DNA of 64,000 nucleotides from Candidatus Auribacter fodinae. GTDB taxonomy: Bacteria; Auribacterota; Auribacteria; Auribacterales; Auribacteraceae. The notes below the pieces were generated by a model, which ran no database searches, was not told where the DNA came from, and worked only from the letters and a program-made list of their open reading frames with translations. The DNA is taken from assembly GCA_003599815.1 (NCBI GenBank), contig QZJZ01000010.1:15050-79049 (forward strand). The letters run 5' to 3'. The position numbers and the translations under genes were made by a program. Of the stretch, positions 4,749 through 20,465 are shown piece after piece. Positions within the stretch are counted from its first letter, which is position 1; the number at the start of each line of letters is the position of its first letter.

Positions 4749-4775
4749 TTATCGGTAAAAGCATAAACTCTTTTA
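4749..4775 (-). promoter_or_regulatory. Sigma-28 (FliA) promoter for flgM
   Basis: The minus strand reads TAAA-N15-ACCGATAA, one mismatch from the TAAA-N15-GCCGATAA consensus. The -10 element ends about 36 nt upstream of the flgM ATG. Confidence 0.55.
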
Positions 4776-4940
4776 GGAAAAATTTTCCTATCACCGCATA
4801 TTTTTGAGATCATTTTACAATTTTCTTCATACCAATATGTTATAAAATCACTCAAAATTCTGTTAATAGGTTGTTATCGTCACTTACAACGATTACTTTA
4901 TTCTTGAAGGAAAATAGTTTCTATTATTGGAAAGCTTTAT

Positions 4941-6071
4941 TTAATTCAAATCGATTATCTTTTTGTTTTTATATACATCTATCATCTTCTCAAACGAATC
5001 ACAGCTTTCCGCTGTTTGAGCCCATTCCAGCATCTCATCTATTCCGAGTTCAAGCGAGACGGGCAGAAATATGCCAAGATCATGTTGTAAACGGGATGTG
5101 TCAGCATAACACGCCCTGATGTCTCCGCGACGGTACATATGGCTGATACTGGGCTGAATCTTAGAACTCATCACACGTGCTATAATTCCCGCCAGTTTCA
5201 TGATAGATACCTGCCTGCCGCTGCCGACATTATAAACGCGGCACTTATCATCTGAGGAATATATCATTCGCATTAAGATTTCTATCGCGTCATGTATCCA
5301 TATAAAATCACGTATTTGCCCACCGTCCTCAAAAAGGATCGGTGTTTTTTTTCGTTTAAGGCGATTAATGATGACCGGAATTATACCGGCGAACTGATTG
5401 GTTAATGACTGGCGAGGGCCATAGACCGGAAAAAATCGCGCTATTGCGGCAGGAAACGAATACTCCCTGCTGAAATTTTTTACCATCGTTTCCTGTACAT
5501 GTTTGGTTAACGCATATGAACTGGACGGATTCGTTACCCTGTCTTCAGGTGTTGGTATCGCTTCAAGATCATGCCCGCATTTATCACAGGCCGGCTGGTA
5601 ATGATGTTTTTTTATAGATTCCTCATCTCTGGACACCATGTCCTTTACGCCGCATGAAGGGCATATATAAGAACCTTCACCATAGACACACCATGATGAG
5701 CCGAGCACAAATTTTTTACAGCAATGCTCCCCATTAGCCAGAATGTCAAGAATATTGACCGTACCGCCCACATTCACGTCCCAGTAATCCTTGATGTTCC
5801 ATAATGAGGGCATGATACCAACCCTTGACGCAAGGTGCACTATGACTGACTGGTCTTTTATTATTGTACGTAAATGATCGTAATCACAAACATCCCCTTT
5901 GATGAAAAATGCCTTGTGATTCATATACGCAGGCGGTTTTCCGTCTGGATGGATAAGCGGGTCAAGGGTATCCAGAATAGTTACTTCATGTCCTTCGGCA
6001 ATAAGCCTGTCAGCCAGATGCGACCCGATAAATCCCGCACCGCCGGTTATCAATACATGTTCCATGCTCAA
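4941..6071 (-). CDS. NAD-dependent sugar epimerase/dehydratase (extended SDR) with an inserted CxxC...CxxC zinc ribbon
   Basis: Rossmann motif TGGAGFIGSHL and the catalytic SYALTKH (S...YxxxK). A roughly 40 aa insertion containing four cysteines lies between the central strand and the catalytic Tyr: C137 and C140 (...YICPSCG...), C162 and C165 (...ACDKCGH...). Confidence 0.8.
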   Translation of the reverse strand: MSMEHVLITGGAGFIGSHLADRLIAEGHEVTILDTLDPLIHPDGKPPAYMNHKAFFIKGDVCDYDHLRTIIKDQSVIVHLASRVGIMPSLWNIKDYWDVNVGGTVNILDILANGEHCCKKFVLGSSWCVYGEGSYICPSCGVKDMVSRDEESIKKHHYQPACDKCGHDLEAIPTPEDRVTNPSSSYALTKHVQETMVKNFSREYSFPAAIARFFPVYGPRQSLTNQFAGIIPVIINRLKRKKTPILFEDGGQIRDFIWIHDAIEILMRMIYSSDDKCRVYNVGSGRQVSIMKLAGIIARVMSSKIQPSISHMYRRGDIRACYADTSRLQHDLGIFLPVSLELGIDEMLEWAQTAESCDSFEKMIDVYKNKKIIDLN

Positions 6072-6099
6072 AGCGCCCTCCCGGTAACCATCGACTGAT

Positions 6100-6669
6100 T
6101 CAACGCCTGAAATATCTGAATATCAGGGCAAACGGGCTTAACAGTACCATAAGAAAAGCTGTGTAGGCTATCAATAAAAACGTAAAAAAAAGATTTATTC
6201 CAAAGATGGCATAACTGAATACATACTCTACTGCTTTTTTATAGAATCGATTCGGTTTTAAAACTGAAAGAAAACCATCTGGATCCAGAGTAAGTTTATA
6301 ACGCGAGTTCAGCCAGTACGCGTACAAATCAACATTGAAATACCGCGCCATTCCGTTTTGAACCCCATATAGTATAAACACTGCGTCATATTCCTTATTA
6401 CGAAACTCGCGATAATGATCTCCCAGCCGGGCCAGTGTAAAACCTGATGCGTCTTGGGTTTCATATATATTATGAATTTCAGGATACGATTCGCAAGGAT
6501 GCGGAACGCTGTTTTTTACTCGTAAAATATCTACCTGCGCATGTTCGTATTCTTCACGAATCAGCTTAAAAGCAGTCTCCATGGATGGAGAATACGACCG
6601 GATAACCAGTACTTTTTGTATATCATAAACAAAATGTTTACCATTGTTGAGCTGATCCATTCCGAACAA
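6100..6669 (-). CDS. Hypothetical protein with C-terminal transmembrane anchor, embedded in glycosylation operon
   Basis: 189 aa ORF in operon context with tight spacing to both neighbours. It has a hydrophobic C-terminus (FGINLFFTFLLIAYTAFLMVLLSPFALIF). I recognise no motif. Confidence 0.4.
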   Translation of the reverse strand: MFGMDQLNNGKHFVYDIQKVLVIRSYSPSMETAFKLIREEYEHAQVDILRVKNSVPHPCESYPEIHNIYETQDASGFTLARLGDHYREFRNKEYDAVFILYGVQNGMARYFNVDLYAYWLNSRYKLTLDPDGFLSVLKPNRFYKKAVEYVFSYAIFGINLFFTFLLIAYTAFLMVLLSPFALIFRYFRR

Positions 6670-6672
6670 ACC

Positions 6673-7641
6673 CTACCGTTTATCAATATTGTTATAGGCA
6701 TTGTCCCAGTCTCTGTGCCCATGGATGAACAAGGAATAGCGCTTCAACACCATTTTGGGCATTTTCCACGCGGCGCTGATCCGGCTACGCAGGAAACTGA
6801 ACCCGCGGCGCGTCTGTGAAAATTGGCGCGCCATATCAATCTGGTGACTGATAATATCCATAAAATGAACTATAAGCCAGTCCCGCTTATAATTTTTTAC
6901 GATAGTAAACAGCTTATTCCTGTTGGTCAGAAATACGTGACGAGGGCTGAGCGCGCCCAGCGTGGCACTGCCGTGGTGATAACACTTCGCTGATGGAACA
7001 TACAACGCCTTATACCCCGCAAGCAATGACCGGAAATCAAGATCAACATCTTCCATATAGGCAAAATAATCCTCGTCAAAAAAACCGATCTCATCAAAAA
7101 GACTGCGGCGATACACCGCCGCTCCGGCACATGCCCCGAACACATATTTCTGCTGATCGAATTGCCCGTTATCAAGCTGATTATGTCCCCGATTAGTAGG
7201 CGCTCCTCCGGCTGAAAAAGCATCACCCGCGGCATCAATCATCTCACGATGTTTTGCGTTGAGCATTTTACCCGATGCCATACCGCACTGCGGATCTTGT
7301 CTGAGCGTTTCTATCAAAACCGCAAAATAGTCGGATTCGATTTCAACATCATTATTGATGAGCGCAATATATTCTCCTGAAGCGGCCTTTATACCCGCGT
7401 TGCAGGCCGCCGCAAACCCTTTATTTTTTTTGAAGGAGATCATCTTGACGTCAGGAAACGATGTCTCCACCAATTTAACAGAACCATCCTTACTGCCATT
7501 ATCGACAACAATGAGCTCGTAGTCAGTAAAGATGTTTCTCTGCATTGATTTAAGGCACGCCTCCAGATACATTATTCCGTTCCAGTTCGGGATAATGACA
7601 GAAACCCTGTTTTTTATAAACCGTACTGCTTTGAGAGCCAT
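6673..7641 (-). CDS. Glycosyltransferase family 2
   Basis: VSVIIPNWNG...ELIVVDNGS.DGS...DxD-type motif (NNDVE) is typical of GT-A/GT2. The start is placed at the internal Met (MALKAV) to avoid overlapping the upstream gene; the longest ORF extends to 7701. Confidence 0.8.
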   Translation of the reverse strand: MALKAVRFIKNRVSVIIPNWNGIMYLEACLKSMQRNIFTDYELIVVDNGSKDGSVKLVETSFPDVKMISFKKNKGFAAACNAGIKAASGEYIALINNDVEIESDYFAVLIETLRQDPQCGMASGKMLNAKHREMIDAAGDAFSAGGAPTNRGHNQLDNGQFDQQKYVFGACAGAAVYRRSLFDEIGFFDEDYFAYMEDVDLDFRSLLAGYKALYVPSAKCYHHGSATLGALSPRHVFLTNRNKLFTIVKNYKRDWLIVHFMDIISHQIDMARQFSQTRRGFSFLRSRISAAWKMPKMVLKRYSLFIHGHRDWDNAYNNIDKR

Positions 7642-7663
7642 GATATCTTTCCGTACTATTTTA

Positions 7664-8026
7664 TCACCCGATAGAACTGCCCGGCGCGACATCACTGTCA
7701 ACCGTCAGCAGAGCCAAACCTTTTTCATCCCGCGCGGCAAGCAGCATACCTTGAGACACAATGCCCCTCAGCTTGGCTGGCTTTAAATTTGCAACCACGA
7801 CTATTTTTTTCCCGATCAACTGTTCGGGCGAATAATACTGCGCTATACCCGCAACGAGTGTGCGTTCCTCATCTCCAAGTGAGATACTCAGTTTCATCAG
7901 CTTCTCCGTTTCAGGAACCGGTTCCGCAGTAAGAATCTGAGCAACCCTTAGCTTCACGGAAAAAAACTCTTTAATATCAATTAAACCGTCATCCTGAGAA
8001 ACGGTTTGTTTTGCCTGTTCTTCCAT
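7664..8026 (-). CDS. Stand-alone tRNA-binding domain protein (CsaA/Trbp111/MetRS C-terminal-like OB fold)
   Basis: 120 aa. The sequence ...LRVAQILTAEPVPETEKLMKLSISLGDEERTLVAGIAQYY...LIGKKIVVVANLKPAKLRGIVSQGMLLAA matches the EMAP/CsaA tRNA-binding domain signature. A GAGGAG ribosome-binding site is present. Confidence 0.75.
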   Translation of the reverse strand: MEEQAKQTVSQDDGLIDIKEFFSVKLRVAQILTAEPVPETEKLMKLSISLGDEERTLVAGIAQYYSPEQLIGKKIVVVANLKPAKLRGIVSQGMLLAARDEKGLALLTVDSDVAPGSSIG

Positions 8027-8042
8027 TATATACTCCTCTGCT

Positions 8043-8504
8043 TCATTTATTCTCGCTCAGATTTTTCTCGATAGTATCTATTTCATACCCGCAATTCCTC
8101 AACAAGGCATACCGCTTTCTGCTAGCCAAAACCAGATTGTCATCATACTTTTCGGCAAAATCGACTATGCGGGGAAATCGTTCAATAAACGCCATATCAC
8201 GTTCAGTATAATCCGACGCTACGATAAGATAATCATAATGCCGGGCAAGCCGTTGCATCCCCCCTATCACCACCGGGCTTTCAACTCTTTTTTCAGGGCG
8301 GAATACCTCATGCGGAACAAAAGACGACGGCTTGAATGTCCATAAAAGATCGTCCAGAATTCCGGCTTGTTCAGGGGTACCGGCGTAAATATAAACTGAA
8401 TTTCCCTGCTCATAACGATGCTCAGTTATAGCACAGATATAATTGTTCTTTTCAGGTTCGTGGAGAATATAAAACCACGCTCGTTTATGAACAGGCTCAG
8501 TCAT
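8043..8504 (-). CDS. holC: DNA polymerase III chi subunit
   Basis: WFYILHEP...ICAITEHRYEQGNSVYIYAGTPEQAGILDDLLWTFKPSSFVPHEV aligns motif-for-motif with E. coli HolC (TFYLLDND...LVCEIAAERWRSGKRVLIACEDEKQAYRLDEALWARPAESFVPHNL). The C-terminal VDF motif is also conserved. Confidence 0.75.
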   Translation of the reverse strand: MTEPVHKRAWFYILHEPEKNNYICAITEHRYEQGNSVYIYAGTPEQAGILDDLLWTFKPSSFVPHEVFRPEKRVESPVVIGGMQRLARHYDYLIVASDYTERDMAFIERFPRIVDFAEKYDDNLVLASRKRYALLRNCGYEIDTIEKNLSENK

Positions 8505-8536
8505 TGACGATACAGAATCCTCTAAGCAAATCAGGT

Positions 8537-10024
8537 TTATTGTACAGAGTACAGCTTTTCGGTCAGTTTTTCATGAAGGCCGGGTGATATAGCTGTTGTC
8601 CGGGGAAATGATATGGTTTTGTTTAATTGATTATTTCTCAAGTTGTCCAATATGTTCGAGCAACATAATTCTACACCACGCACTGACGCTCCAGTTTCCG
8701 ACAAGGTATAGAATGTCACTTTTTGAGAGTATATTTCAACTAATTTTTCAATATTTTTCCGGTAACTGTTCAGGGATATCGCTGAAAGGACAGGAGTCCG
8801 GTTATATGACGGAACCATAACCTGCTTCTCTCTTGCGATTCGTTTCCGATGCAATATCTCCATCGATTTGAAACGATGCGAGTAGGTATAAAGCTGACGG
8901 CTTTCATAGGAATACGCTGAATACGCTCTGCTTTGCGGATACGCATAATCCATCCCGGCGAAAAATATCTGAGTAAACCCAAATTGAACCGCTATATCAA
9001 CCGCGATACACGATACAGACCCGCCTGCATGCACAACTCCCTTGCCTGTCAATAATTCCTCATATTCTCCTGTCACGGAATGCCCTTTTTGCAGGAACAC
9101 CATAAATGGGCCCGGATACTGCGCAATAGTCTCTGCGTTGGAGACCGGACAGAACAACAGCGGAACAGGTCGTGGAGGAACCAGCCTGAAATGACGAAGG
9201 GTTATAGGCTGGGGATCCACACTGACTATAAAATCAGGACATATATTATTGGTCAAAAGTATTTGCAATGCGGTATCAACAGAAATGATATAAACAGCGC
9301 CTTCAAACTCCCGCAACAACGGCAATGTCTCATCCAGAGACGGCCCTGCGCCAACTATAACAACAGGTTTTCCATGAAACGCACATTTCAAATCGTCTAT
9401 ACCCGGTGAGCGAACTACCGTTTCAAGATTCTTCTCAAAATTAAGCAGGAACTGATTCCTGAACTTTGAGGACGTACGGCGTTCCATCTGCATTGACTCA
9501 AAAAAAGAGTGAATATTGCGAAACTGAGGCGGCAGGCACTTATAAGATGCCTGATGAATGACATACGACCACTGTAAATTCTCTAGTTCCCTGCTTATAT
9601 CATGGAAGCGTTCCAGAACTTCTTTTTCCGTAACGCCGGTTATAAGGCTGAAACGGCATAACGACGCAAAATGTTCAAGGTTCACAACAGACAACCCGGC
9701 AGTCAGGATTTCCGGATTTAGTTCAATAACGACAAGAATACCGTCACTGCCGATACGCTGAGCGATCTCAAAAAGGTGATACCCCAGCCCAAAGCCATAA
9801 ATGACAACATGATTGTCTTTCAGTTGAATACTGTCTGCAAAACGCTGTGCTTCCCGTTCAGGGTTCATCATACTGTGAAGCAATACATCCTTATACCTGA
9901 ACGTATAAGAACCGGAACGGGTAGGCAGAAGATTTATTTGCGTTTGACAGATGTGCCGCTCCACATACGGACAAACTGCTCGGATAAACTCCAAATTATC
10001 TTGAAATCGTTTTACGGGATCCAT
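8537..10024 (-). CDS. Motility accessory factor (Maf/DUF115, MAF_flag10) family putative flagellin nonulosonic-acid glycosyltransferase
   Basis: VVIVGAGPSLDETLPLL...AVYIISVDTALQILLTNNICPDFIVSVDPQ is the diagnostic Maf/DUF115 core. 495 aa. A second paralog lies at 17689-19563. Confidence 0.75.
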   Translation of the reverse strand: MDPVKRFQDNLEFIRAVCPYVERHICQTQINLLPTRSGSYTFRYKDVLLHSMMNPEREAQRFADSIQLKDNHVVIYGFGLGYHLFEIAQRIGSDGILVVIELNPEILTAGLSVVNLEHFASLCRFSLITGVTEKEVLERFHDISRELENLQWSYVIHQASYKCLPPQFRNIHSFFESMQMERRTSSKFRNQFLLNFEKNLETVVRSPGIDDLKCAFHGKPVVIVGAGPSLDETLPLLREFEGAVYIISVDTALQILLTNNICPDFIVSVDPQPITLRHFRLVPPRPVPLLFCPVSNAETIAQYPGPFMVFLQKGHSVTGEYEELLTGKGVVHAGGSVSCIAVDIAVQFGFTQIFFAGMDYAYPQSRAYSAYSYESRQLYTYSHRFKSMEILHRKRIAREKQVMVPSYNRTPVLSAISLNSYRKNIEKLVEIYSQKVTFYTLSETGASVRGVELCCSNILDNLRNNQLNKTISFPRTTAISPGLHEKLTEKLYSVQ

Positions 10025-10977
10025 TATCGAATATCAAATGTGTACAGCACACTGTTCCAGCTGTCCAATACCAGAACATGCCCGTCACCAGTAGCGCAGG
10101 CGGCATTCAGGGATGCACCATCCTTCTGCAGCCGTGCTTTGATTTCACCATCAATTGTCATGATATATAGACTGTCAGATGTCTCCGATGATACAGCGAT
10201 TGTCCGTTTATCTATAGCCGTAACATACGCAATAAATTCCAACGGCAAGGAAGAATTGCTTGAAGAAAACGACCGCTGAAACTGTCCATCACGACTAAAT
10301 TTTTGTAATCGATCATTACCGCTGTCAACAACCCAAACAGAACCGTCTTCCGTGTATGCCGCTGACAACGGGTACTCCATTGTCCCTATTTTATAATCAT
10401 CTTTGAAAAAGAAGACATCAGGGGGCTTTAAACGATGAGAGCGTCGTACCCATGAATCAAAAACCATCCCCCGGCGAAATTCTTCGCTTTCATAATATGA
10501 CTGATCCGGCCCCGGAACCCCAAATATCCTGAGCAGTGTGCCGTCTAGAGCAAACACCTGTACTCGATGATTGTTTCTATCTGTTACAATAATACTGTCG
10601 CCGGCAGAACATATTCCCCACGGTTCGCTGAACTGCCCCGGTTCGCGCCCATACGACCCAATAGTTTTAAGTATACTGCCATCCATATCCATTGCCGCAA
10701 TCCGATGATTCCAGCGGTCAGCTACCCATAATAACCCTGTCCGGTCAATGGTTAGTGATGTAGGATAATCAAATAACCCTGAGGTTTTACCATGCCCTCC
10801 CACCGTCTTAACAACAGTCCCATCCAGATTCAGCCAGAAGATCTTATGATCAAACTGCCCTGCTATTACAATACTTTTGTCGTATTTTATAATCGAAGAC
10901 GGATTACTATCTTTCATTACATCAATACGTAATGACTTGCTGGGATTAATAACTCGAACATCTGTTACTGTATTCAT
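10024..10977 (-). CDS. NHL-repeat (six-bladed beta-propeller) protein, no signal peptide
   Basis: Repeated ...VADRWNHRIAAMDMDG..., ...VTDRNNHRVQVFALDG... and ...VVDSGNDRLQKFSRDG... units are typical NHL repeats. Confidence 0.7.
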   Translation of the reverse strand: MNTVTDVRVINPSKSLRIDVMKDSNPSSIIKYDKSIVIAGQFDHKIFWLNLDGTVVKTVGGHGKTSGLFDYPTSLTIDRTGLLWVADRWNHRIAAMDMDGSILKTIGSYGREPGQFSEPWGICSAGDSIIVTDRNNHRVQVFALDGTLLRIFGVPGPDQSYYESEEFRRGMVFDSWVRRSHRLKPPDVFFFKDDYKIGTMEYPLSAAYTEDGSVWVVDSGNDRLQKFSRDGQFQRSFSSSNSSLPLEFIAYVTAIDKRTIAVSSETSDSLYIMTIDGEIKARLQKDGASLNAACATGDGHVLVLDSWNSVLYTFDIR

Positions 10978-10978
10978 A

Positions 10979-12172
10979 TCACTTCACAGAAATTAAATTT
11001 TTAGCACCGTAAGTATGAACCAGATCCTTAATGGAATCGGTTACGTACATAATATCTTCATAAGTTATATCAGGAAACAAGGGTAATGTTACAACACTTT
11101 TGGAAAGTTTAGCCGCCTCTGGAAAATCGCTTTCCTGATAGCCAAATGTTTCCTGATAATAAGGATGCAGATGAAGTGATACGAAATGTATACTTGATCC
11201 GATTCCTCGTTCACGCAATTTCAGGAGGAATTCATCACGGGTAATCGAAAGCTGGTTCAGATTCAGTTTGACCACCATCAGATGATGTGCATGGCGGTCT
11301 GTCCTGTGCTCTCTAAGCAATTCGATTTCAGGCATTGCCCCTAGCTGTTCCCTGTATATAGCCGCGGCCCTGGTACGTGCTTCATGCATCTTTTCAATGC
11401 GGCGTAACTGTACCAAACCGAGCGCGGCCTGAAGGTCGCTGAGATTATATTTATACCCATGATACATTATCTTATAGTAATCCAATTTTGCCGAACCGTC
11501 GGGTAAATAACGTTTCCACGCGTCTTTACTCATTCCATGCAGGCTCAGTATACGTACCTTTTCAGCGAGCAGGTCGTTATCGCAGGTTACCATTCCGCCT
11601 TCCGCTGTGGTCAGGTTTTTGGTTGCGTAAAATGAGAAACAGGTAAAATCGCCGATTGAACCTATTTTATTTCCTTTGTATTTTGTTTCAAGGGCATGCG
11701 CCGCATCTTCAATAACCATCAGGTCATGTTCAAGTGCAATGTCCATTATAGGATCCATGTCGCATGGCTGGCCCGCGAAGTGTACCGGTACTATAGCGCG
11801 TGTTTTTTCATTCACCGCTTGAGCAATATTTCTTGGGTCAATATTTCCTGTGAAGGGGTCTACATCGACAAACCGTATCCGGCCGCCTGCATGCAGTATT
11901 TCACTGGCAGTAGCTGAAAAGGTAAATGGTGTAGTGATTACTTCATCATCAGGTTTAAGATCAAGTGTCAGCAACGCCAAATGTAACGCGGCGGTACATG
12001 AACTGACAGCTATGGCATTCTGCGCATTGGTGTATCGAGCAAATTCAGATTCAAATTCCTGCACTTTTGGGCCGGTAGTAAGCCAACCTGAACGTAATAC
12101 TTCGAGTACAGCCTGTTCTTCTTCTTTGCCAATAGACGGTTTAAAAAACGGTACATTACGCATCATGCCCAT
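10979..12172 (-). CDS. DegT/DnrJ/EryC1/StrS-family PLP-dependent sugar aminotransferase (PseC/PglE-like)
   Basis: The N-terminus ...PFFKPSIGKEEEQAVLEVLRSGWLTTGPKVQEFE is DegT-like. Motifs ...FSFYATKNLTTAEGGMV... and ...LSLHG...KRY follow, with the conserved Lys in the SFYATK region. Confidence 0.85.
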   Translation of the reverse strand: MGMMRNVPFFKPSIGKEEEQAVLEVLRSGWLTTGPKVQEFESEFARYTNAQNAIAVSSCTAALHLALLTLDLKPDDEVITTPFTFSATASEILHAGGRIRFVDVDPFTGNIDPRNIAQAVNEKTRAIVPVHFAGQPCDMDPIMDIALEHDLMVIEDAAHALETKYKGNKIGSIGDFTCFSFYATKNLTTAEGGMVTCDNDLLAEKVRILSLHGMSKDAWKRYLPDGSAKLDYYKIMYHGYKYNLSDLQAALGLVQLRRIEKMHEARTRAAAIYREQLGAMPEIELLREHRTDRHAHHLMVVKLNLNQLSITRDEFLLKLRERGIGSSIHFVSLHLHPYYQETFGYQESDFPEAAKLSKSVVTLPLFPDITYEDIMYVTDSIKDLVHTYGAKNLISVK

Positions 12173-12193
12173 AGTCGTTCCTTGTGTTATTGT

Positions 12194-14551
12194 TTACACA
12201 GCGCAATCGGTATGTTCTGTGTTAAGTACTCTTAAAACCTGTTCCGCCGAGCGCATTGTGCCGCTTGTTTGCTGAGCGTCATCACGCGGAATGCAGATCA
12301 GCGAATTGACAGTATTACATAATTGATTCCGCACGGTATTGGCGCTGTTCGCATGCCCGACATAACTGATCCGCGCGGTCATATGCCCTCTCCAGTGAAT
12401 ACGTCCTGTTTCATCAGACTCACTTATTGAATTGTATACACGCATCAAATACGATTTTTTTATTTCCTGATACTCAATCATCGGAACGGAATAGAGGAGC
12501 GACTTATCAGTACATATCGCTATCCCCTTATCTTTATCGGAAATATCAACCCATCCCTCGGTGGCTCCCAGACAGGTTCTCGCGGAGGTAAAAGCGCCTA
12601 CAGAATGGTGGTGGTTAATTATCTTTCCATTCGGATTAAAGCATTCAATATCTTTCCCGCCGTTAATCGTGGAAAACCGGAGCGTATTTACGTCAAATGC
12701 TTCCGGATTTAATGTCGTAATGCCAAGCCGAAAAAATATCGGGGTAAGGTCAGCAAAATAGAAGCGGTAGAAGACATCAACTCTCGGTTTATTTCGATAC
12801 ACATAAAAGGTTTTCCACACTTTTCCAGACCCCATGTCCATCTCAGCAGACACTGGAAGGCGCACGGGAAAAACAGACGGATTATCTGGAACGACAATTC
12901 TTGTCTGAACAGTATCGTTATACAGTTTGCCGAAGAAATCACACAACTGTATACCGCCTGTATAATAATCACTTGAATGTCCGATATGATCGTAATAAAC
13001 CGGCGGAAGGTAACCAGCCAATGATTTCGATGATATCCCCGGATATATAAGTTCACGTATATCAGCGCCAGTTTTAGCAGACATGGTCAATATGACAGAA
13101 TCCGTTTCTATGTTTATCCTGTCCCCGGTGTATTGGTGATGTTTATATTCTACTTCTTGTCCAAGTTCCACAATACGTCCCTGAGCGGCGTATCCTGCTT
13201 CAATGAAAGGGCATACTGTCATTTTTACCTGACGTATACTTCCGTCACGGTACAACTGGCGATGCTCACATTGTGAAACTACAAGCTGTCCGTCAATCTC
13301 AACACCGATTCGGCCACGCTTGACGCCTTTTTCGAATGACAGTGTAATTTCAACCGCTTCACCGTTCCAGTCGTGAGCAAAAGGGTTAATCAGTATAAAA
13401 TCGTATTGAGGGGTGAAATGGCTGTATACGGCGGAAAGGCGCTCATCGATTTTATGTGAAAGCTGGCCAAGCTTCATTTTTCCGTTATAGTGTTTCTCTT
13501 CGGTTGTTTTGGTACGAAGGTCACTGCCCCACATTTCATTTAAACCGCTCCAGAGGTCATTATTATTACCCGCCAGCCCATTAAAAAATTCGAGTTCTTT
13601 TAGTTTGTTGTAACTGGCATAACATTGGGAATTCAAATGTACGTTATCCCTGCCGCTGACAGCCCATCTGACAACATTATAGTCATCACGGTTTTTGCAT
13701 GGGATAGGGCATTCGGGCGACTCAATTTCTATTTCGGTTTCAGGAGCAAGCAGACCAAGTACCTCAGACGGATTGATCAGTTGAGCGTTATTCCGCGAAG
13801 TAAGTTTTTTCAGCAGTTTTTCTATTTTATTAATTTCACCGGAAATTATTTCCTGTATTCCCGGGCGGTAATCAAAAATTTCCCAGTCGGTTCCATACAA
13901 AGCAAGCGCACGGTCATGCTCGTCATGCTGATGCGACATCACACTTGTCAAAAAGTCATCTATACTGAGACGGTCATAAATACAGCGCTGAAATTTGTAC
14001 GAATTAAGCGAACTGTTCCATATAATTGGGATCACCGCGCCATTTGTCCCTTTTACCAGTGCAGGTTTATACCGCAGGTCAGGTGGAAAATCGTTATATT
14101 CCGCGGCATTATCCCAATCCATTATCAATGCGCGATACCCTATTTCCCTGAATAACTCAGGGATGGCTTTGGAATATGTCTGTTCATTGATAAAGCCGAT
14201 TTCAGGGAATTCACCCAACAAATTCCGGTACACTTTCCGTCCTTCCCGAAGGTTCACGCGATTAACGTCAACTGGAATCAACGGGAATATGCTCTGTGTC
14301 ATTGATGAACCTATAACATCACATTTCCCATCCATCCAGAGTTCGCGGATCGTTTCAACGAAATGCGGGTCAATAGAGTTAATGGTTTCCAATGTGGACG
14401 CGCTGAATTCTATACCAAGTTTATAGCCCTTGGAGATCAGATCAACAACCGGCCAATAACACTTGTCCAGTATGACGGGATACTGGTCGGTCGGAATGCA
14501 GGAAAAAGAAAGATTCGCATGAAAAATTGTATAAAAGTAGAGTTTTCCCAA
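12194..14551 (-). CDS. Large GH57-like / polysaccharide-deacetylase-fold domain protein (785 aa) of unknown role
   Basis: The N-terminal ~350 aa (LYFYTIFHANLSFS...CDVIGSSMTQSIFPLIP...FGEFPEIGFINEQTYSKAIPELFREIGYRALIMD) resembles the glycoside hydrolase family 57 catalytic (beta/alpha)7 barrel. I recognise nothing in the C-terminal half. Confidence 0.5.
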   Translation of the reverse strand: MGKLYFYTIFHANLSFSCIPTDQYPVILDKCYWPVVDLISKGYKLGIEFSASTLETINSIDPHFVETIRELWMDGKCDVIGSSMTQSIFPLIPVDVNRVNLREGRKVYRNLLGEFPEIGFINEQTYSKAIPELFREIGYRALIMDWDNAAEYNDFPPDLRYKPALVKGTNGAVIPIIWNSSLNSYKFQRCIYDRLSIDDFLTSVMSHQHDEHDRALALYGTDWEIFDYRPGIQEIISGEINKIEKLLKKLTSRNNAQLINPSEVLGLLAPETEIEIESPECPIPCKNRDDYNVVRWAVSGRDNVHLNSQCYASYNKLKELEFFNGLAGNNNDLWSGLNEMWGSDLRTKTTEEKHYNGKMKLGQLSHKIDERLSAVYSHFTPQYDFILINPFAHDWNGEAVEITLSFEKGVKRGRIGVEIDGQLVVSQCEHRQLYRDGSIRQVKMTVCPFIEAGYAAQGRIVELGQEVEYKHHQYTGDRINIETDSVILTMSAKTGADIRELIYPGISSKSLAGYLPPVYYDHIGHSSDYYTGGIQLCDFFGKLYNDTVQTRIVVPDNPSVFPVRLPVSAEMDMGSGKVWKTFYVYRNKPRVDVFYRFYFADLTPIFFRLGITTLNPEAFDVNTLRFSTINGGKDIECFNPNGKIINHHHSVGAFTSARTCLGATEGWVDISDKDKGIAICTDKSLLYSVPMIEYQEIKKSYLMRVYNSISESDETGRIHWRGHMTARISYVGHANSANTVRNQLCNTVNSLICIPRDDAQQTSGTMRSAEQVLRVLNTEHTDCAV

Positions 14552-14712
14552 TATATCAGCTCCTGTTTAGCCGGATATTTCCACAGTTCACCGCTAAACA
14601 TTAGCATAACTTATACCAACACGCACCAACGCAATAATTACAAGAAAATTGAACTTAAAAGCGACTACCAAATGAGAAAAAGATATGCTTTACAACCATC
14701 CTGTCGGCAATT

Positions 14713-15972
14713 TCAACACAAATTACATTCAGCCGGAATAGGTTCCGTAATAATTTTCAGGGTATTCATCACCCGTTCAACACTGCAAAACGCTTCTTCC
14801 CTGTTTGAAGCTGAACAGATAATATTTGCCGCTTTCCCCATATTGCTGACAACAGGCTGAATAATATCACCCTGTTTTACATGGAGAAAAATATGCCGGA
14901 ACCCCGGAATAGAATCGAGTTGATCCAAACCTTCTATGGCAACTACTCGTCCCGGTTCAGGAATTATTGCCCGTTCGCAGGCAACGTGATTTCGTGATGG
15001 AGTTATATCTGCAATATTTAACGGCAACCCGATAGCAATATCTATCGCCGCTTTTATGGAGCGCATTCCGGTAGCAAGCGGATCTGTATACTGGCTATGA
15101 TACCCCCCACTGAGGCGGGCGGTTATTTCACCGATTTTCGGACCGTCTTTTGTGATCTTCATATCAGCTTTTGACGCGCCATACCGAATGCCGACCGCTT
15201 TGATTCCCTGCTTCATGACATCCAGCACCTGAGCACGCATTTCCTCCGAAATAGTTGATGGAACAGTATGCCCTATCTCTACAAAAAATGGTTCCCGTTC
15301 AATATGCCGGTCAGCTATTGTCAGAAGATGGACTTCACCATCATAGACCAGAGTATCAACACTCAGTTCAGGGCCTGCCATGTATTCTTCCATCACCGCT
15401 TTACCGGTTAAACTGAAAGACAACGCGGTTTGTAATGCCTCTTCAACCTCTGTGATGCTGTCAAGACGCCTGACACCGCGAGCACCCATATTATCCACCG
15501 GTTTGACAACCAGCGGAAAACCAATATGCTTTACCGCTTTAAGAGCGTCATTAAGAGACCCGACCTCCGCCCATTTTGGAGCAGGTACGCCGTGCTTCCA
15601 GAAACATTCTCGCATCCTTGCCTTATTCGTCGCGCACAACGCTGTTTCCGGCGATACGCCAACCAGTCCCAGTTCCTGAGCTACTGCCGCAACCGTCCGT
15701 GATACATCCGTTCCCACCGTCATTACACCATGAACTGTATGTATTTTATCGCTAAATACCCTTGCCGCCCTGACTGTTGCGTCAATATCTCTGGTGCTGA
15801 CAATCATCTTGTAATCCGCATACTGAAATCCAACGGCGTTTTCGTCCATATCTGAAGCAAGAACTTTCATACCAAGCTCTTTTGCTTGCTTTATCGCGGC
15901 GCTCTGAAACAAACCTGCACCAATAACCATGAGCAGTTTATTGTCGTAAAGTGACATAATCGGTTTCTCCAC
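14713..15972 (-). CDS. ATP-grasp domain ligase
   Basis: The pre-ATP-grasp N-terminus MVIGAGLFQSAAIKQAKELGMKVLASD is followed by an ATP-grasp core ...FPLVVKPVDNMGARGVRRL...EEYMAGPELSVDTLVYDGEVHLL... Confidence 0.75.
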   Translation of the reverse strand: MEKPIMSLYDNKLLMVIGAGLFQSAAIKQAKELGMKVLASDMDENAVGFQYADYKMIVSTRDIDATVRAARVFSDKIHTVHGVMTVGTDVSRTVAAVAQELGLVGVSPETALCATNKARMRECFWKHGVPAPKWAEVGSLNDALKAVKHIGFPLVVKPVDNMGARGVRRLDSITEVEEALQTALSFSLTGKAVMEEYMAGPELSVDTLVYDGEVHLLTIADRHIEREPFFVEIGHTVPSTISEEMRAQVLDVMKQGIKAVGIRYGASKADMKITKDGPKIGEITARLSGGYHSQYTDPLATGMRSIKAAIDIAIGLPLNIADITPSRNHVACERAIIPEPGRVVAIEGLDQLDSIPGFRHIFLHVKQGDIIQPVVSNMGKAANIICSASNREEAFCSVERVMNTLKIITEPIPAECNLC

Positions 15973-16999
15973 ATTGATTTCTGACTATATCTCCAATAAG
16001 GTTTGCGATGCGAAAAACGCCTTTTGCATCTATAATCTCTTTACCTCTTAAAGACATCGCCTCGCGCAACTCTTTATTTTTGATTACCCGTGAAAATGCC
16101 TGCAAAAATTTCCATGCGTCTTTTTCATTATAGCTGAAAGGACAGAAACAGAATCCGAGCCGCTCAAATTCCCTGCCTATATCATACTGGTGCTCAACCT
16201 GCGGCAGAACCAAAGACGGAGTGCCGGATGCCACTGCTTCATACAAGGTGACGCCTCCTGAGATAATCGCAATATCCGCTTCATACAGCAATTCACCCAT
16301 ACTGTCGGTATCGTATATATATTCATAATGGAATTTAGAGCATAATTGTTTGACTCTTTCCGCATCTTTAACGCCTGACCCGACAACAACTTTAATCTGA
16401 AATTTCTGCAAATGGCTTCCAAGTAATTCAACAATCCATGGCGTAAGGTTACGGGGATCACTCCCGCCAAGTGATATGACAAGATTCCTGACAACAGGGG
16501 CAACACTCTTGTCGCGGTCATGTATTTCGCTGAATACCGGATCCATAACCATATATTGCTTGCCGAACATTCTTATTTGTCCTGAAATCGAAGAAATTTG
16601 CTTTTCAGAAAGATTAGCGTCTATAAGGACATCAGCGTAATCTCTCCCTGATCCCAGATCGTCAAAATGAATCAGATAAAAATCTTCGTCCGCCAGAGCC
16701 CGCACCGTTGCCTCATCAGTGTCCCTGACATCCTGAACAACGATTCTTGCGTTATAACGGTCACGATAACTCAGCGCCTTTTGATATATATCACCATCAG
16801 GCACGTTCTCAACTTGCACTCCCCATGATGCAATTTCTGAAACGACATAATCAGGAGAGCTGGTCAATACCAAAGGCTGAATAGTATTCCGCCTGAGAAC
16901 GGTACATAATGAACGGGCACGCATGATGTGCCCGAGCCCGATGTCATGACTGCCATGTACGCAATAAAGAATTGGTTTCTCAAAAATTCGATTATTCAT
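15938..16999 (-). CDS. pseG: PseG-like UDP-sugar hydrolase (GT28/MurG-like fold; UDP-2,4-diacetamido-2,4,6-trideoxy-L-altropyranose hydrolase family)
   Basis: The N-terminus ILYCVHGSHDIGLGHIMRARSLCTVLRR matches the PseG GxGHxxR motif. The C-terminal ...ISGGVTLYEAVASGTPSLVLP resembles the MurG/PseG C-domain. Confidence 0.65.
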   Translation of the reverse strand: MNNRIFEKPILYCVHGSHDIGLGHIMRARSLCTVLRRNTIQPLVLTSSPDYVVSEIASWGVQVENVPDGDIYQKALSYRDRYNARIVVQDVRDTDEATVRALADEDFYLIHFDDLGSGRDYADVLIDANLSEKQISSISGQIRMFGKQYMVMDPVFSEIHDRDKSVAPVVRNLVISLGGSDPRNLTPWIVELLGSHLQKFQIKVVVGSGVKDAERVKQLCSKFHYEYIYDTDSMGELLYEADIAIISGGVTLYEAVASGTPSLVLPQVEHQYDIGREFERLGFCFCPFSYNEKDAWKFLQAFSRVIKNKELREAMSLRGKEIIDAKGVFRIANLIGDIVRNQCGETDYVTLRQ

Positions 17000-17005
17000 T
17001 ATGGT

Positions 17006-17692
17006 TTATAATAATTGAGAATATGTCTGCCACCATGCGGCAAACTGTTTATTAAACCAGCCGGTACTTCCGGCAAGCAATTCACACCGTTCATACCATC
17101 CAAGAATTATTATTTCATCTAAACCGGTTACAGCACTAAAAAAAGGCTTATTTTCAGATTCAACGACCGGCAGTTCGTGACTCAGTTTATACAGTTTATC
17201 CCATATTTTCGGGTATCGGGCAAGAAAACCCGATTCCATGCCTTCATCTTTTATGCGACAATTCCGGCAATGTATAGATGCCGCGCTTCCCTGAGGGTAT
17301 TCTATACCCCAGAAAATGTCCGGCACCTCCCTGCCGTAGACCCTGCATGAAAAAGGACGGACAGGGTATATCAGGCATCTGCCGTTATCACGAAACACAC
17401 ATTTTCGTTCCTTTGGTTCAGCATAAAAAAAACGCGCGTGTTCATCAACTGAAAATTTATCATATATATATTGTGCTATCGCATAAAACTCAATGGTATA
17501 AATTAGCGGCAGGCTCATGAAATTACCATTTTCATCACAGGCTGAATCAAGTTTTGTACAACACCAGTCACCGCATTCGGATTTCATACACTGTGTGGGA
17601 GGCACGCTGTCAAGCAATGAACATAACTCTACTATTCGCTCTTTAGCACTCCTCGTATGCTTAAGGATAGAATCCATTAGCAACGCCTTCAT
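17006..17692 (-). CDS. YkgJ/UPF0153-family CxxCxxCC Fe-S/zinc-chelating domain protein; FliB (flagellin lysine-N-methylase)-like
   Basis: Cys cluster ...CMKSECGDWCCTKLDSAC... plus downstream ...RCLIYPVRPFSCRVYG... are typical of the PF03692 family to which Salmonella FliB belongs. It lies in a flagellin-modification operon. Confidence 0.55.
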   Translation of the reverse strand: MKALLMDSILKHTRSAKERIVELCSLLDSVPPTQCMKSECGDWCCTKLDSACDENGNFMSLPLIYTIEFYAIAQYIYDKFSVDEHARFFYAEPKERKCVFRDNGRCLIYPVRPFSCRVYGREVPDIFWGIEYPQGSAASIHCRNCRIKDEGMESGFLARYPKIWDKLYKLSHELPVVESENKPFFSAVTGLDEIIILGWYERCELLAGSTGWFNKQFAAWWQTYSQLL

Positions 17693-19563
17693 GAATCGCT
17701 ACCGACATTATTTTTGAACTCATCAAAATTTTTTATAAACATTGAGCATTGTTCAATAAGACGCTGGAAAATTGTTTTGTCTTTGTTGACCAGATCTTTC
17801 AGCCCATCAAGGTTATCCTTGTCAATGGTATCTATTGATCCGAGATCCTTTTTCGCCTGTAATACCATGATATCGGTAATATTATTTCCCAGCAACCGGA
17901 ACACATCTTTTCTGCTGTGCAATTTGCGAGATATAGAAGCCCAGTCTTTGAAAAACTGGTACAACCGCTGATTCGACATATTGTTGTTCTTCACATATTT
18001 TTCTATTGAGTTCAGTATTTCTACTCCATCTGAACAGATCGATACGACATCTTTCAATCCCTTCACTGCGGCATTTATTTTTTGAACAAGGAGATTCCGG
18101 TTACATTCAGGTTTGGCATTATACGCAGTGTGAATCGTGTTTTTGGTATCTATTTGCTGTGACGCTTTACGCAGGATAAATTCTTTTAAAGACAACGGTT
18201 TTGCGCCCGCAATATACGCGCCTCCTTCAGTAAGGTCGTAACAGTCCGGCTTATGTTTATCGAGCAGATCCTCAAAATGTTTCAGGAACACATGCATGGA
18301 TGTGGTGGTAATAACCCTGCCGCCAAAAATATCCTGAACCAGAACCGTGTCTTTCTGATCCTGACTGACCGAACTTTTGCGCACCATAGCCGAGCCGCGG
18401 ACATGGGTCATTTTGTCTGGGAACGACAAGTCCTGCCCTACCAGCCCGACAGGCGTAAGCCCCAGCTTTAACGCCAGCATAAGTGCGGTATGCGCAACAG
18501 AAAGCCCCTTATCCATATTGCCTTTATTTTCCACCGCATCCGATAACCAGTCACAGAGCGATTTGCCCGGCAGCGACATCATAAACTTCGGGCCTTTATA
18601 TCCATAAGTAATGTCAGGATAGACTTCAGGATCGACAATAAGCGCGGTGTTCAGTTCAGGTATTCCCTGAAAATAACGCGCATTATGTTTGGTATAATCA
18701 ATACTCACTACGATATCAGGTTCGATCCCGTGTTTCAATAACACCCTCAAGGCGGTATCCACAGAAATAATAACCGCTTTACCCTGAGCCTGTTTCAGAT
18801 ACCGTATATTTTTATTTAGCGACGGCCCTGCGGATACAACAATACCTGGAAAACCGACAAACTTATTGAATAATTTATTTATCCCCGGCGTACTGACGTA
18901 TGCCGGCATATTCCTGAAAATGTTCGTTGCAAAGTCTTCTGAAGCTTTGATCTGCGATACGGTATTGACCCGCGCCCATTGAAACGTGTCGCGTATCTTT
19001 TCACCAATAGTATTGTAATACGCAGGGTCAATTTTTCCTGAAGCCTGATGACTGACAACAGTAATTCCGTTAGCGAAAAGAGTTATGGCGCATCCCTGCA
19101 GTGCTCGAAAAATGTCCATAGGAGAACGGTCTACCGCGAAATATATTTTTGTGACACCGTAGAATTCACGTAAATCAGCGTGAGACAGGAATGCCTTGAA
19201 AACCGCAGGATCTTTTTCGATCACCAAAATAAAATCCCTTGATTTAGACCGGGATACAAGCTCTTTCACATGGTATCCAAGCCCTAACCCAAGTACAGCT
19301 ATGTTCACGTGCGGCGTCATTGTCAAGCTGTCGATAAAACGTGTTGCCTCTTTGACAGGGTCATACATACTGTGCAGCATCGCATCGCCATGTTTTAGAG
19401 TAGGCACGCCCGTACGCGACTCAACAACAGATATATGTCCGTTATTTCCATTATTATTGCAAAGAGCGGCAACATCAGCGGCAATATCGGGCTGATTCTG
19501 CTTGATAAGTTCAATATTGCGTTTTAAACGGTACTGAACTGACTGCTGAAGAGTATCGACCAT
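17689..19563 (-). CDS. Motility accessory factor (Maf/DUF115) family paralog, 624 aa
   Basis: IVVSAGPSLNKNIRYLKQAQGKAVIISVDTALRVLLKHGIEPDIVVSIDYTKH is the Maf/DUF115 core. The architecture is similar to the paralog at 8537-10024. Confidence 0.75.
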   Translation of the reverse strand: MVDTLQQSVQYRLKRNIELIKQNQPDIAADVAALCNNNGNNGHISVVESRTGVPTLKHGDAMLHSMYDPVKEATRFIDSLTMTPHVNIAVLGLGLGYHVKELVSRSKSRDFILVIEKDPAVFKAFLSHADLREFYGVTKIYFAVDRSPMDIFRALQGCAITLFANGITVVSHQASGKIDPAYYNTIGEKIRDTFQWARVNTVSQIKASEDFATNIFRNMPAYVSTPGINKLFNKFVGFPGIVVSAGPSLNKNIRYLKQAQGKAVIISVDTALRVLLKHGIEPDIVVSIDYTKHNARYFQGIPELNTALIVDPEVYPDITYGYKGPKFMMSLPGKSLCDWLSDAVENKGNMDKGLSVAHTALMLALKLGLTPVGLVGQDLSFPDKMTHVRGSAMVRKSSVSQDQKDTVLVQDIFGGRVITTTSMHVFLKHFEDLLDKHKPDCYDLTEGGAYIAGAKPLSLKEFILRKASQQIDTKNTIHTAYNAKPECNRNLLVQKINAAVKGLKDVVSICSDGVEILNSIEKYVKNNNMSNQRLYQFFKDWASISRKLHSRKDVFRLLGNNITDIMVLQAKKDLGSIDTIDKDNLDGLKDLVNKDKTIFQRLIEQCSMFIKNFDEFKNNVGSDS

Positions 19564-19579
19564 AAATGAGGAACTCCTT

Positions 19580-20200
19580 TTATCTGGCGGCGATATGCTC
19601 TATCAACACGTCAGCAATTTCAATTTCCTCATCGATTTTTGATGCCAGTTCATATTCAAGAAGATCAGAAAGCATAACAAGGTCATCCGCTTCGATAGCC
19701 TTTTTGGTATCCATGAGAAGAGAGAGTAACTCTTCATTGGCACGGTCAACGGATTTATCATTAACTTTGAGCGTGGAATAATTTATCTGCAGTAAGACCG
19801 CAAGGTCGTCGAGAAACTGGATAATTTTTCTCCATTCGGTACACGACTGGGAAAAAGTTTCCAGTGCGCGACCACGGTCTCCGGCCTGGAGCGACTCAGC
19901 AATATTGTTCATTGAACCGGACAGCTTCGGAAGTCCGTCCTTAATTTCTTTCAACGCCCGGATAGCCGTTTTGTTCACATCATCCGTTTTAATAACAATC
20001 TCTTTAAATGTTGACGGGTTTGCCGCTTTTATTTCCTGATCGAACTCATGAAGTTTACGTCCGTCTACAGTTACATCAATCACCAGCCTGCGGTCATCTA
20101 TGTCACGAACATGATTCTGGATAGTCAGCAACACTTCATCGAATGACGAACATCTATCAGTGTTTAAATCTGTTTTGACACCATCAACAATAATTTTCAT
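19580..20200 (-). CDS. Hypothetical protein, first gene of the flagellin-modification operon (start corrected to MKIIVDG)
   Basis: A GGGAGG ribosome-binding site sits 8 nt upstream of the ATG at 20200. The ORF is 206 aa with an acidic, helical C-terminal half and no recognised domain. The longest ORF extends to 20254 but lacks a ribosome-binding site. Confidence 0.45.
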   Translation of the reverse strand: MKIIVDGVKTDLNTDRCSSFDEVLLTIQNHVRDIDDRRLVIDVTVDGRKLHEFDQEIKAANPSTFKEIVIKTDDVNKTAIRALKEIKDGLPKLSGSMNNIAESLQAGDRGRALETFSQSCTEWRKIIQFLDDLAVLLQINYSTLKVNDKSVDRANEELLSLLMDTKKAIEADDLVMLSDLLEYELASKIDEEIEIADVLIEHIAAR

Positions 20201-20465
20201 CTGGATTACCTCCCGATTTAAATGTAAGTGGGAAAATACGGATAACCGGCTCAATCTCCTCAGAATAACCCGCTGAATTTTGTTCTCCGTATTCTCCCCG
20301 AATAATGTAACAAGTCAGAAGCGTTTCCCGACACTGCCTGAAATAACCGTTTAAATGCCCCACAAATGCAAATAGAAAACGACGCAGTATTCAGATAAGC
20401 AGATATCGTTCCATATCGCTAAAAAACTAAAACGCCATGATTCTCCTGACGTTTTATAAATAGAG

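Follow-up and report, generated by a model that had tools for sequence, protein, structure and literature searches.

A probable flagellin glycosylation island with two predicted sigma-54 units in Candidatus Auribacter fodinae

What is the function of a gene island in which two Maf paralogs, an ATP-grasp ligase and a GH57-like protein are found together with a DNA polymerase III subunit and a tRNA-binding protein, next to the flagellar rod genes of Candidatus Auribacter fodinae? The question is raised by contig QZJZ01000010.1 of assembly GCA_003599815.1, from which a window of 64,000 nucleotides (positions 15,050 to 79,049 of the forward strand) was analyzed; all coordinates given below for this DNA are those of the window. 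A sequence-only reading had described 14 co-directional, tightly spaced or overlapping genes beside flgM and the rod and ring genes, and the open reading frame (ORF) list of the window bears out both the arrangement and the location. Fourteen minus-strand ORFs extend from 4941 to 20254 with a spacing between neighbors of -38 to +32 nt, the sole larger gap being one of 161 nt (14552-14712). Downstream of the island are flgM, folE, and flgF-flgG-flgA-flgH, and upstream are a divergent GT2+TPR gene, the gene for a HAMP protein, hisS, and aspS. The organism was previously reported to encode flagella (PMC9324843). We conclude that the island is quite likely a flagellin O-glycosylation locus, organized as at least two sigma-54 units, in which the Maf enzymes use nonulosonic-type donors and for which the missing biosynthetic steps are encoded elsewhere in the genome. 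The gene content, the synteny, the promoter motifs, the conservation of catalytic residues, and an association across phyla were observed directly.

Genes were assigned by profile searches of Pfam and NCBIfam. Maf paralog 1 (Maf624, 624 aa, 17689-19563, minus strand as for all island genes), a putative flagellin glycosyltransferase, and Maf paralog 2 (Maf495, 495 aa, 8537-10024) each contain the MptE-like catalytic domain PF01973 (155 and 143 bits, respectively) and the Maf N-terminal domain PF20157 (25.1 and 23.6 bits), with all four scores above the cutoffs. The two proteins are 26% identical to one another (E = 3e-53), and each has a match in the solved Maf structure 5MU5 (4e-9 for Maf624 and 2e-6 for Maf495). 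These matches confirm the earlier description of a flagellin-modification island built around two Maf paralogs. With the NCBIfam PseD domain model, the two Maf proteins scored 76 and 110 bits against a cutoff of 670 bits. Flagellin glycosylation by Maf enzymes is well known, and the Maf system of the island is itself of a known kind; what is new here is a conserved Auribacterota island that exposes a cross-phylum module of a GH57-fold protein and an ATP-grasp ligase. The first island gene (19580-20254) encodes a DUF8042-type protein of 206-224 aa, depending on the start codon. The protein itself has no match in the local profile libraries; its orthologues in loci L004-L006 carry PF26154, and that of L005 additionally carries TP0873_N. 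The gene most likely starts at an ATG near 20200 (206 aa) and not at TTG 20254, since this ATG is preceded by a GGGAGG ribosome-binding site and the orthologues are 205-208 aa long.

All of the island proteins were compared by tblastn with 86 fetched loci, and the gene contexts of the homologues were examined. The same gene order recurs in at least seven other Auribacterota loci (L004-L009 and L011, hereafter the close relatives), with amino acid identities of 31-74% (55-64% for the GH57-like protein), and the arrangement is therefore more than chance. The comparison with related genomes that the sequence-only reading had proposed thus found the synteny preserved. The shared order is DUF8042 - Maf624 - Cys228 - PseG-like - ATP-grasp - (GT2+TPR) - GH57-like, followed by DegT - NHL - Maf495 - chi - tRNA-binding - (extra gene) - GT2 - 189 aa - (SDR) - (flgM). 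Both Maf genes are kept in every close relative. The presence of the SDR gene and the adjacency to flgM vary, and the SDR gene is absent from L004, L008, and L009. The GT2+TPR glycosyltransferase gene (396 aa, 20523-21713, plus strand) is divergent in the window and belongs to the island system, since in L004 and L005 it lies within the island between the ATP-grasp and GH57-like genes. Farther out, in Auribacterota and Omnitrophota loci with 45-50% identity (L012-L016), only PseG-like - ATP-grasp - GH57-like is retained, together with Maf, DegT, or NHL.

Sigma-54-type promoters were defined as GG-N10-GC in a TGGNAY-N6-TGCW context (TGGCAC/TTGCW-like), with the added requirements that the site precede a gene and be conserved among orthologous loci. 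The relaxed motif has three matches on both strands of the window, compared with approximately 1.65 expected by chance. All three are intergenic, on the minus strand, and correctly oriented, and they precede the island start, the GH57-like gene, and flgF. The first, P1 (TGGAACGATATCTGCT, 20398-20413), is located ~200 nt upstream of the first island gene, and its form TGGAAT-N6-TGCT is also found upstream of the orthologous first gene in L004, L005, L006, L008, and L009. The second, P2 (TGGTATAAGTTATGCT, 14603-14618), falls within the 161-nt gap and precedes the start codon of the GH57-like gene by ~53 nt. In an alignment of five loci TGGTA...TGCT is invariant, and an equivalent motif occurs 60-70 nt upstream of the GH57-like gene in all of the close relatives. 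A sigma-54-type motif was also found ~100 nt upstream of the PseG-like gene in L014 and L015. In motif, context, and conservation P1 and P2 agree with sigma-54 promoters as predicted from the sequence. The third match (TGGCATACGTATTGCA, 3371-3386) is followed, 40 nt downstream, by ATG 3331, which has an AGGAGG ribosome-binding site and is likely the true start of flgF; the ORF list instead starts this gene at GTG 3392. The island is bounded downstream by a textbook sigma-28-type motif, TAAA-N15-ACCGATAA (4767-4793, minus strand), read from the sequence directly upstream of flgM (4396-4713), whose product is FlgM by Pfam. Generic scans of the window for sigma-70 promoters and terminators gave counts equal to the shuffled expectation and were uninformative.

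A single transcript from about 20250 to 4941, as the sequence-only reading had supposed, is not supported. The 161-nt gap that precedes the GH57-like gene contains the second conserved sigma-54-type motif, and two such motifs together with a separate sigma-28-type flgM promoter make one transcript over the island unlikely. The island looks like at least two sigma-54 units that are co-regulated with the rod genes, with flgM as a separate unit. Unit 1 would comprise DUF8042-Maf624-Cys228-PseG-like-ATP-grasp, and unit 2 would comprise GH57-like-DegT-NHL-Maf495-chi-tRNA-binding-GT2-189aa-SDR; both would be switched on together with the rod genes. Co-regulation of the island with flagellar genes is likely, and the motif class shared with flgF strengthens the flagellar link. 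The flagellar genes of epsilonproteobacteria such as Campylobacter and Helicobacter are also under sigma-54 control. As a separate observation, nine Myxococcota- or Spirochaete-labelled loci from metagenome-assembled genomes (L049, L052, L054, L056-L058, L060, L061, and L064) carry plus-strand sigma-54-type motifs at ~7683-7772 and ~16450-16600 of the respective locus, that is, at fixed positions ~2.3 kb upstream and ~4.2 kb downstream of the GH57-like gene, and most of them also have Maf, DegT, NeuB, and flagellin genes.

The sugar that is transferred would be made, at least in part, within the island. The aminotransferase (397 aa, 10979-12172), of the DegT/PseC/ArnB type, is a member of the DegT family (PF01041, 432 bits). 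The PseG-like GT-B protein (353 aa, 15938-16999, PF04101), a putative nucleoside diphosphate-sugar hydrolase, corresponds to the C-terminal half of a NeuA fusion from Clostridium botulinum. The combination of a DegT aminotransferase with a PseG-like protein is a signature of the diamino-trideoxyhexose precursor route. We infer the enzymatic steps and the identity of the sugar from the protein families. DegT would aminate a 4-keto sugar nucleotide, and the PseG-like protein would free the sugar from its nucleotide. The two Maf proteins would transfer a nonulosonic-type acid, activated with cytidine monophosphate (CMP), to Ser/Thr residues of flagellin in the cytoplasm. A 4,6-dehydratase, a NeuB-type synthase, and a CMP-transferase would be encoded elsewhere in the genome.

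The ATP-grasp enzyme (419 aa, 14713-15972) belongs to the L-amino acid ligases by PF13535 (61.8 bits) and by the LAL_C2 domain PF18603 (57.1 bits versus a cutoff of 29.4), and its best match in the PDB is the L-amino-acid ligase BL00235 (3VOT, 1e-28). Since the island contains an aminotransferase and lacks an N-acetyltransferase, the simplest proposal is that this ligase would N-acylate the sugar amine with an amino acid or a similar carboxylate, in place of the missing PseH/LegH acetyltransferase. Deletion of the ATP-grasp enzyme SfmE in Shewanella alters the mass of flagellin (PMC3765264), and the type B locus of Clostridioides difficile carries an ATP-grasp gene (PMC5207246).

The 785 aa protein encoded at 12194-14551 has the profile and the catalytic Glu and Asp of GH57. 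The match to PF03065 (59.3 bits versus a cutoff of 21.2) is confined to the N-terminal third, within the first 280 residues. In a profile search of the PDB, E123 and D222 fell on residues E123 and D214 of 1K1W, the GH57 4-alpha-glucanotransferase of Thermococcus litoralis; these two residues of 1K1W are taken to be its nucleophile and acid/base, respectively. In an alignment of 43 family members, H11, N13, E123, D222, E224, and many arginines are invariant. The AlphaFold model (pLDDT 91.5) has a GH38/GH57 fold over the whole chain, and structure comparison matched it to GH38 alpha-mannosidases (TM score 0.64) and also to GH57 enzymes. The features shared with 1K1W and with the GH38 alpha-mannosidase 2WYI are the N-terminal (beta/alpha)7 barrel, the Glu/Asp pair at the 1K1W catalytic positions, and the GH38-like course of the whole chain. 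The sequence identity, however, is only ~10-13%, many invariant arginines are present, and the genes nearby are those of nonulosonic acid synthesis and flagellin, not of glucan metabolism. This context argues against alpha-glucans as the substrate. The protein is predicted to be a catalytically competent enzyme with a retaining alpha-glycosidase fold that acts in a sugar pathway and not on starch. As its step we favor the hydrolysis or the transglycosylation of an alpha-linked sugar or sugar nucleotide that carries a negative charge.

The protein is 99% identical to one from a Candidatus Auribacterota metagenome-assembled genome, and homologues with 29-65% identity were found in Auribacterota, Omnitrophota, Clostridia, Dehalococcoidia, Nitrospirota, Binatia, Vampirovibrionales, Myxococcota, Spirochaetes, Desulfobacterota, Methanobacterium, and Thermoplasmata. 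The family is small, since an exhaustive search of 1.84 billion representatives recovered no more than 382 clusters (50% identity) at E <= 1e-30. Two architectures were seen: proteins of ~750-790 aa that align end to end, and proteins of ~620-700 aa that have the N-terminal ~360 residues in common plus a second, more weakly matched stretch.

Gene associations were counted for 83 non-redundant loci within 10 kb on either side of the GH57-like gene. Maf genes are present at 51 of these loci (adjacent at 27-29), ATP-grasp genes at 52 (adjacent at 24), and PseG-like genes at 39; the corresponding numbers are 38 for DegT (adjacent at 27), 31 for NeuB, and 25 for flagellin. At least one of Maf, NeuB, or flagellin is found at 62 of the 83. 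Further neighbors, identified by ORF clustering and Pfam, are PseB/PglF-type dehydratases, methyltransferases, DUF8042 proteins, short-chain reductases, B12-radical SAM enzymes, FliD, and FliS. In C. botulinum and Pelotomaculum the GH57-like gene is located in a flagellar glycosylation island, beside the ATP-grasp ligase gene or one gene away from it, with NeuB, the NeuA-PseG-like fusion, and Maf nearby. The DUF8042 genes adjoin Maf in C. botulinum and are present in the Pelotomaculum island. The fused "NeuA" proteins of C. botulinum and Pelotomaculum (580-600 aa; L001 3159-4901 and L003 3592-5394) consist of a CMP-sugar synthetase and a PseG-like C-terminal half, and in tblastn searches the fusion aligns with the PseG-like genes of Auribacterota.

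The ATP-grasp, GH57-like, and NHL proteins had been described as lying outside the standard pse/leg set and as possibly building a novel decoration. They are indeed non-canonical; the first two, however, are not idiosyncratic to this island and recur across phyla as a module of loci for nonulosonic acids and flagellin glycosylation. Our search of the open-access literature found no paper linking GH57 to flagellin or to nonulosonic acids. We advance, as a tentative possibility, that the GH57/GH38-fold protein, with the LAL-type ATP-grasp ligase as its partner, is an undescribed, catalytically active enzyme in a widespread route to amino-acid-acylated nonulosonic or related acids, that this route decorates flagellins as well as further surface proteins across over 10 phyla of bacteria and archaea, with C. 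botulinum among its users, and that the Auribacterota Maf donor, for which no NeuB/NeuA is linked, may represent a new class of sugar. The family retains glycosidase catalytic residues and yet occupies nonulosonic-acid and flagellin loci from Clostridia to archaea under the genome label "alpha-amylase", as for the C. botulinum gene. Assigning the GH57-like step would correct this recurrent misannotation, and assigning it together with the ligase step would supply a missing piece in how modified legionaminic and pseudaminic acids are made, such as that of the C. botulinum flagellar glycan. The locus would also provide a first view of flagellar glycosylation and of sigma-54 flagellar control in the candidate phylum Auribacterota.

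Like the pse/ptm/maf loci of Campylobacter, Helicobacter, and Aeromonas, the island has transferases of the Maf family, an aminotransferase of the PseC type, a protein of the PseG type, and flagellar-gene neighbors. It differs in that PseB, PseH, PseI, and PseF are missing and in that ATP-grasp, GH57-like, NHL, 8-Cys, GT2, and GT2+TPR proteins and the embedded chi and tRNA-binding genes are added. With the C. botulinum island, whose native flagellar glycan is a legionaminic acid derivative (PMC11339370, PMC2674064), it has in common DUF8042 beside Maf, a PseG-like domain, and a pair of neighboring genes for ATP-grasp(LAL_C2) and GH57-like proteins (32-38% identity). C. botulinum, in contrast, has NeuB, the NeuA-PseG-like fusion, methyltransferases, a thiamine pyrophosphate enzyme, a UDP-sugar dehydrogenase, a FliB_C protein, and an adjacent flagellin gene, none of which is in the Auribacter island. 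The sfmABCDE operon for flagellin modification in Shewanella oneidensis similarly includes the ATP-grasp ligase SfmE, has two Maf genes nearby, and lacks clear orthologues of PseH/G/I/F; it differs in having the PseI-like SfmA, a short-chain dehydrogenase/reductase (SDR), and a methyltransferase, and in that a GH57-like gene is not reported for it (PMC3765264).

Several observations weigh against a flagellin O-glycosylation locus that uses nonulosonic-type donors. The PseG-like protein scored 136.5 bits (E = 1.3e-39) with TIGR03590, below the cutoff of 153.55, and the DegT protein scored 364.7 bits with the PseC model TIGR03588, below the cutoff of 423.5. The earlier assignments therefore hold at the level of a PseG-like protein and a DegT family member and not as the PseG and PseC equivalogs; the Maf assignments passed the same profile searches. 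No phmmer match was found between the PseG-like protein and solved PseG structures. The absence of PseB, PseH, PseI, and PseF, noted earlier, was borne out by profile searches, such that of the six-enzyme pseudaminic acid pathway (PseB, C, H, G, I, and F) just the PseC-like and PseG-like proteins are present in the window. Neither PF03102 (NeuB) nor PF02348 (CTP_transf_3), nor an acetyltransferase or a Polysacc_synt_2-type dehydratase, was found there, and NeuB, CMP-transferase, PseB/LegB-type dehydratase, and N-acetyltransferase are likewise missing within 10 kb of 12 Auribacterota islands. There is no flagellin gene in the window, and in L004 and L005 the island is no longer next to flgM. 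The promoters P1, P2, and the flgF site are motif matches only, and a sigma-54-dependent unit that carries chi would be unusual unless internal promoters exist. Lastly, the GH57-like family also occurs in non-flagellated taxa, for example Methanobacterium and Dehalococcoidia; the family is linked to sugar pathways and is not specific to flagellin.

The missing NeuB and NeuA beside the island would be explained if the Maf donor were not a nonulosonic acid at all but either CMP-Kdo or a new kind of activated amino sugar produced by the DegT, ATP-grasp, PseG-like, and GH57-like proteins. We regard this as unlikely, in spite of the absence of NeuB and CTP_transf_3 from the window and from 10 kb on either side of 12 Auribacterota loci; where NeuB does occur near the GH57-like gene (31 of 83 loci), the loci are from other phyla. 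The Maf of C. botulinum accepts both CMP-Kdo and CMP-Neu5Ac (PMC11339370). Lipid A genes (lpxK and an acyltransferase gene) adjoin the L004 island. The absence of NeuB and the CMP-transferase, however, applies to 64 kb of the genome, and DegT together with a PseG-like protein is the precursor signature noted above. The pse and leg genes are scattered in several genomes, such as that of Helicobacter pylori. Shewanella glycosylates flagellin even though clear orthologues of PseH/G/I/F are missing (PMC3765264).

Could the locus instead be a general cell-surface glycan cluster, for lipopolysaccharide, capsule, or an S-layer, with a coincidental flagellar neighborhood? The GH57-like/ATP-grasp/PseG-like module in non-flagellated lineages, the unconserved adjacency to flgM, and the resemblance of the GT2, membrane-anchored 189 aa, and SDR proteins to an envelope module would be consistent with this. 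Against it are the retention of two Maf genes in every close relative, the DUF8042 genes that accompany Maf and flagellar genes in Clostridia, the sigma-54 motif class held in common with flgF, and the flagellin, FliD, and FliS genes that adjoin the GH57-like gene in other phyla, and we consider a general surface-glycan cluster very unlikely. An Arn-type lipid A aminoarabinose pathway, for which ArnB was the best DegT match (381 bits versus a cutoff of 631) and ArnA and ArnC were weak ones, was rejected since the scores are far below the cutoffs and the context of Maf and DUF8042 points elsewhere.

With flagellin glycosylation as the preferred function of the island, two of its genes stand out. 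A homologue of the DNA polymerase III chi subunit (HolC, 153 aa, 8043-8504) and a tRNA-binding protein of the Trbp111/MetRS C-terminal type (120 aa, 7664-8026) lie between the Maf495 and GT2 genes. The chi protein has the PF04364 domain (102.5 bits versus a cutoff of 25.4) with the Arg and Tyr expected of HolC. It aligns along its length with Escherichia coli chi (1EM8, 2.9e-11), and the equivalents of R128 and Y131, presumably the residues that bind the tail of SSB, are kept, whereas those of K124 and K132 are not. All of the NCBIfam equivalog models were below cutoff; the protein is 100% identical to one annotated as chi of Candidatus Auribacter fodinae. A homology search with chi returned mostly short proteobacteria-like contigs and no independent context outside the island. 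The tRNA-binding protein (PF01588, 104 bits) exceeds the cutoff of the MetRS beta-subunit/Trbp111 model TIGR00399 (135.5 bits versus 116.65) and not that of the CsaA model (57.3 bits versus 119.65), so that only the Trbp111 half of its earlier CsaA/Trbp111-like label stands.

The sequence-only reading had found it odd that these two genes are co-operonic with glycosylation genes. The embedding is real and conserved: in all of the close relatives the genes hold a fixed position between Maf495 and GT2, with gaps of 16-32 nt. It is limited, however, to the one Auribacterota clade with 55-64% identity and is absent from L012-L016 and from all other phyla examined, which fits passengers better than a role in glycosylation. 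From this restriction to the closest clade we take the two to be probable housekeeping passengers that became fixed within unit 2 in one lineage. Both pass the family profiles of E. coli HolC and the Aquifex Trbp111/MetRS C-terminal domain, and they differ from these in being placed inside a flagellin glycosylation operon; holC of E. coli adjoins valS. The two proteins might alternatively act in the modification itself, for example as a CsaA-like chaperone that holds flagellin for Maf or in handling aminoacyl-tRNA for the aminoacylation of the sugar. The conserved place of the genes would accommodate such a role, as would the tRNA_bind fold, which is also that of the export chaperone CsaA. It is nonetheless highly improbable in view of the restriction to one clade, the MetRS beta-subunit rather than CsaA assignment, the full-length alignment of chi with R128 and Y131 kept, and the absence of a Fem-type aminoacyl-tRNA transferase.

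Most of the earlier domain calls were upheld by Pfam and NCBIfam; the exception is the 228 aa protein encoded at 17006-17692 (Cys228), which had been called FliB-like and taken to suggest lysine methylation of flagellin. Its eight invariant cysteines (C35, C40, C44, C45, C98, C106, C116, and C142) have a YkgJ/CxxCxxCC-like arrangement, and the score with PF03692 is 19.5 bits, below the cutoff of 23. The protein is lineage-restricted: a search of 5.8 billion proteins yielded just 20 homologues, each of 207-231 aa and with no Pfam domain, and none of the 20 matched the FliB models of NCBIfam, even at E <= 10. FliB is ~400 aa in length. The only likeness to the flagellin lysine N-methylase FliB of Salmonella is a cysteine-rich motif reminiscent of PF03692, and Cys228 lacks the FliB_C domain. 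A FliB-like lysine methylase was rejected on these grounds, and methylation of flagellin lysines is not supported. The structure model is confident (pLDDT 90) and has no fold match in the PDB. The 4-nt overlap of the Cys228 and Maf624 genes suggests translational coupling, and Cys228 is possibly a metal- or Fe-S-binding partner of Maf624.

The remaining island proteins are less directly connected to the proposed pathway. The cytoplasmic six-bladed NHL propeller (317 aa, 10024-10977, PF01436) has no transmembrane segment. It matches the NHL domain of Drosophila Thin/TRIM32 at 4e-58 (200 bits) and that of TRIM71 at 1e-42, and this resemblance to TRIM-type binding domains suggests a scaffold more than an enzyme. 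The similarity to TRIM proteins is unusually close for a bacterial protein. The extended, epimerase-like SDR (376 aa, 4941-6071, PF01370 at 157 bits) is a variable member of the island. It has SSWCVYG and YxxxK motifs and no D-E dyad, the motif of 4,6-dehydratases, and it scored 139 bits with LegB against a cutoff of 475. A PseB/LegB-type 4,6-dehydratase is thus doubtful for this protein, whose gene is missing in several relatives, and the suggestion of a dehydratase is not supported by the motifs; the SDR is probably an enzyme of the epimerase type, and some relatives do without it. Residues ~136-165 form a zinc-ribbon-like insertion (CPSC...CDKC, ~35 aa) that separates the catalytic Ser motif from the Tyr-x3-Lys motif. 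The GT2 glycosyltransferase (342 aa by ORF, 6673-7701, PF00535 at 97 bits) may start up to 20 codons downstream of the ORF start. In relatives its gene is followed at a conserved position by that of the 189 aa protein (6100-6669), which has a C-terminal membrane anchor (transmembrane-like segment at residues 149-185) and no Pfam or NCBIfam match.

An Rfam scan of the whole window gave no match, and no tRNA genes were found in it. The remaining genes of the window are housekeeping genes. Between the GT2+TPR and HAMP genes there is a small Cys-rich ORF (21718-21879, minus strand, 47-53 aa) with CxxC, two further cysteines, and no Pfam match; a 47-48 aa gene is called at the matching place in L004, L005, and L006. 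Two T2SSE-family ATPases (620 and 358 aa) are encoded at 31588-36110 on the minus strand, with a 354 aa protein without a Pfam match and an NYN-domain protein downstream. On the plus strand, 39895-43235 encodes a Helicase_C_3 protein (552 aa) and, after it, an XPB/ERCC3-type helicase (561 aa). Two giant plus-strand ORFs (2057 and 2160 aa) lie in tandem at 43486-49659 and 49832-56314, the first of which contains S8 subtilase, fn3, and right-handed beta-helix regions.

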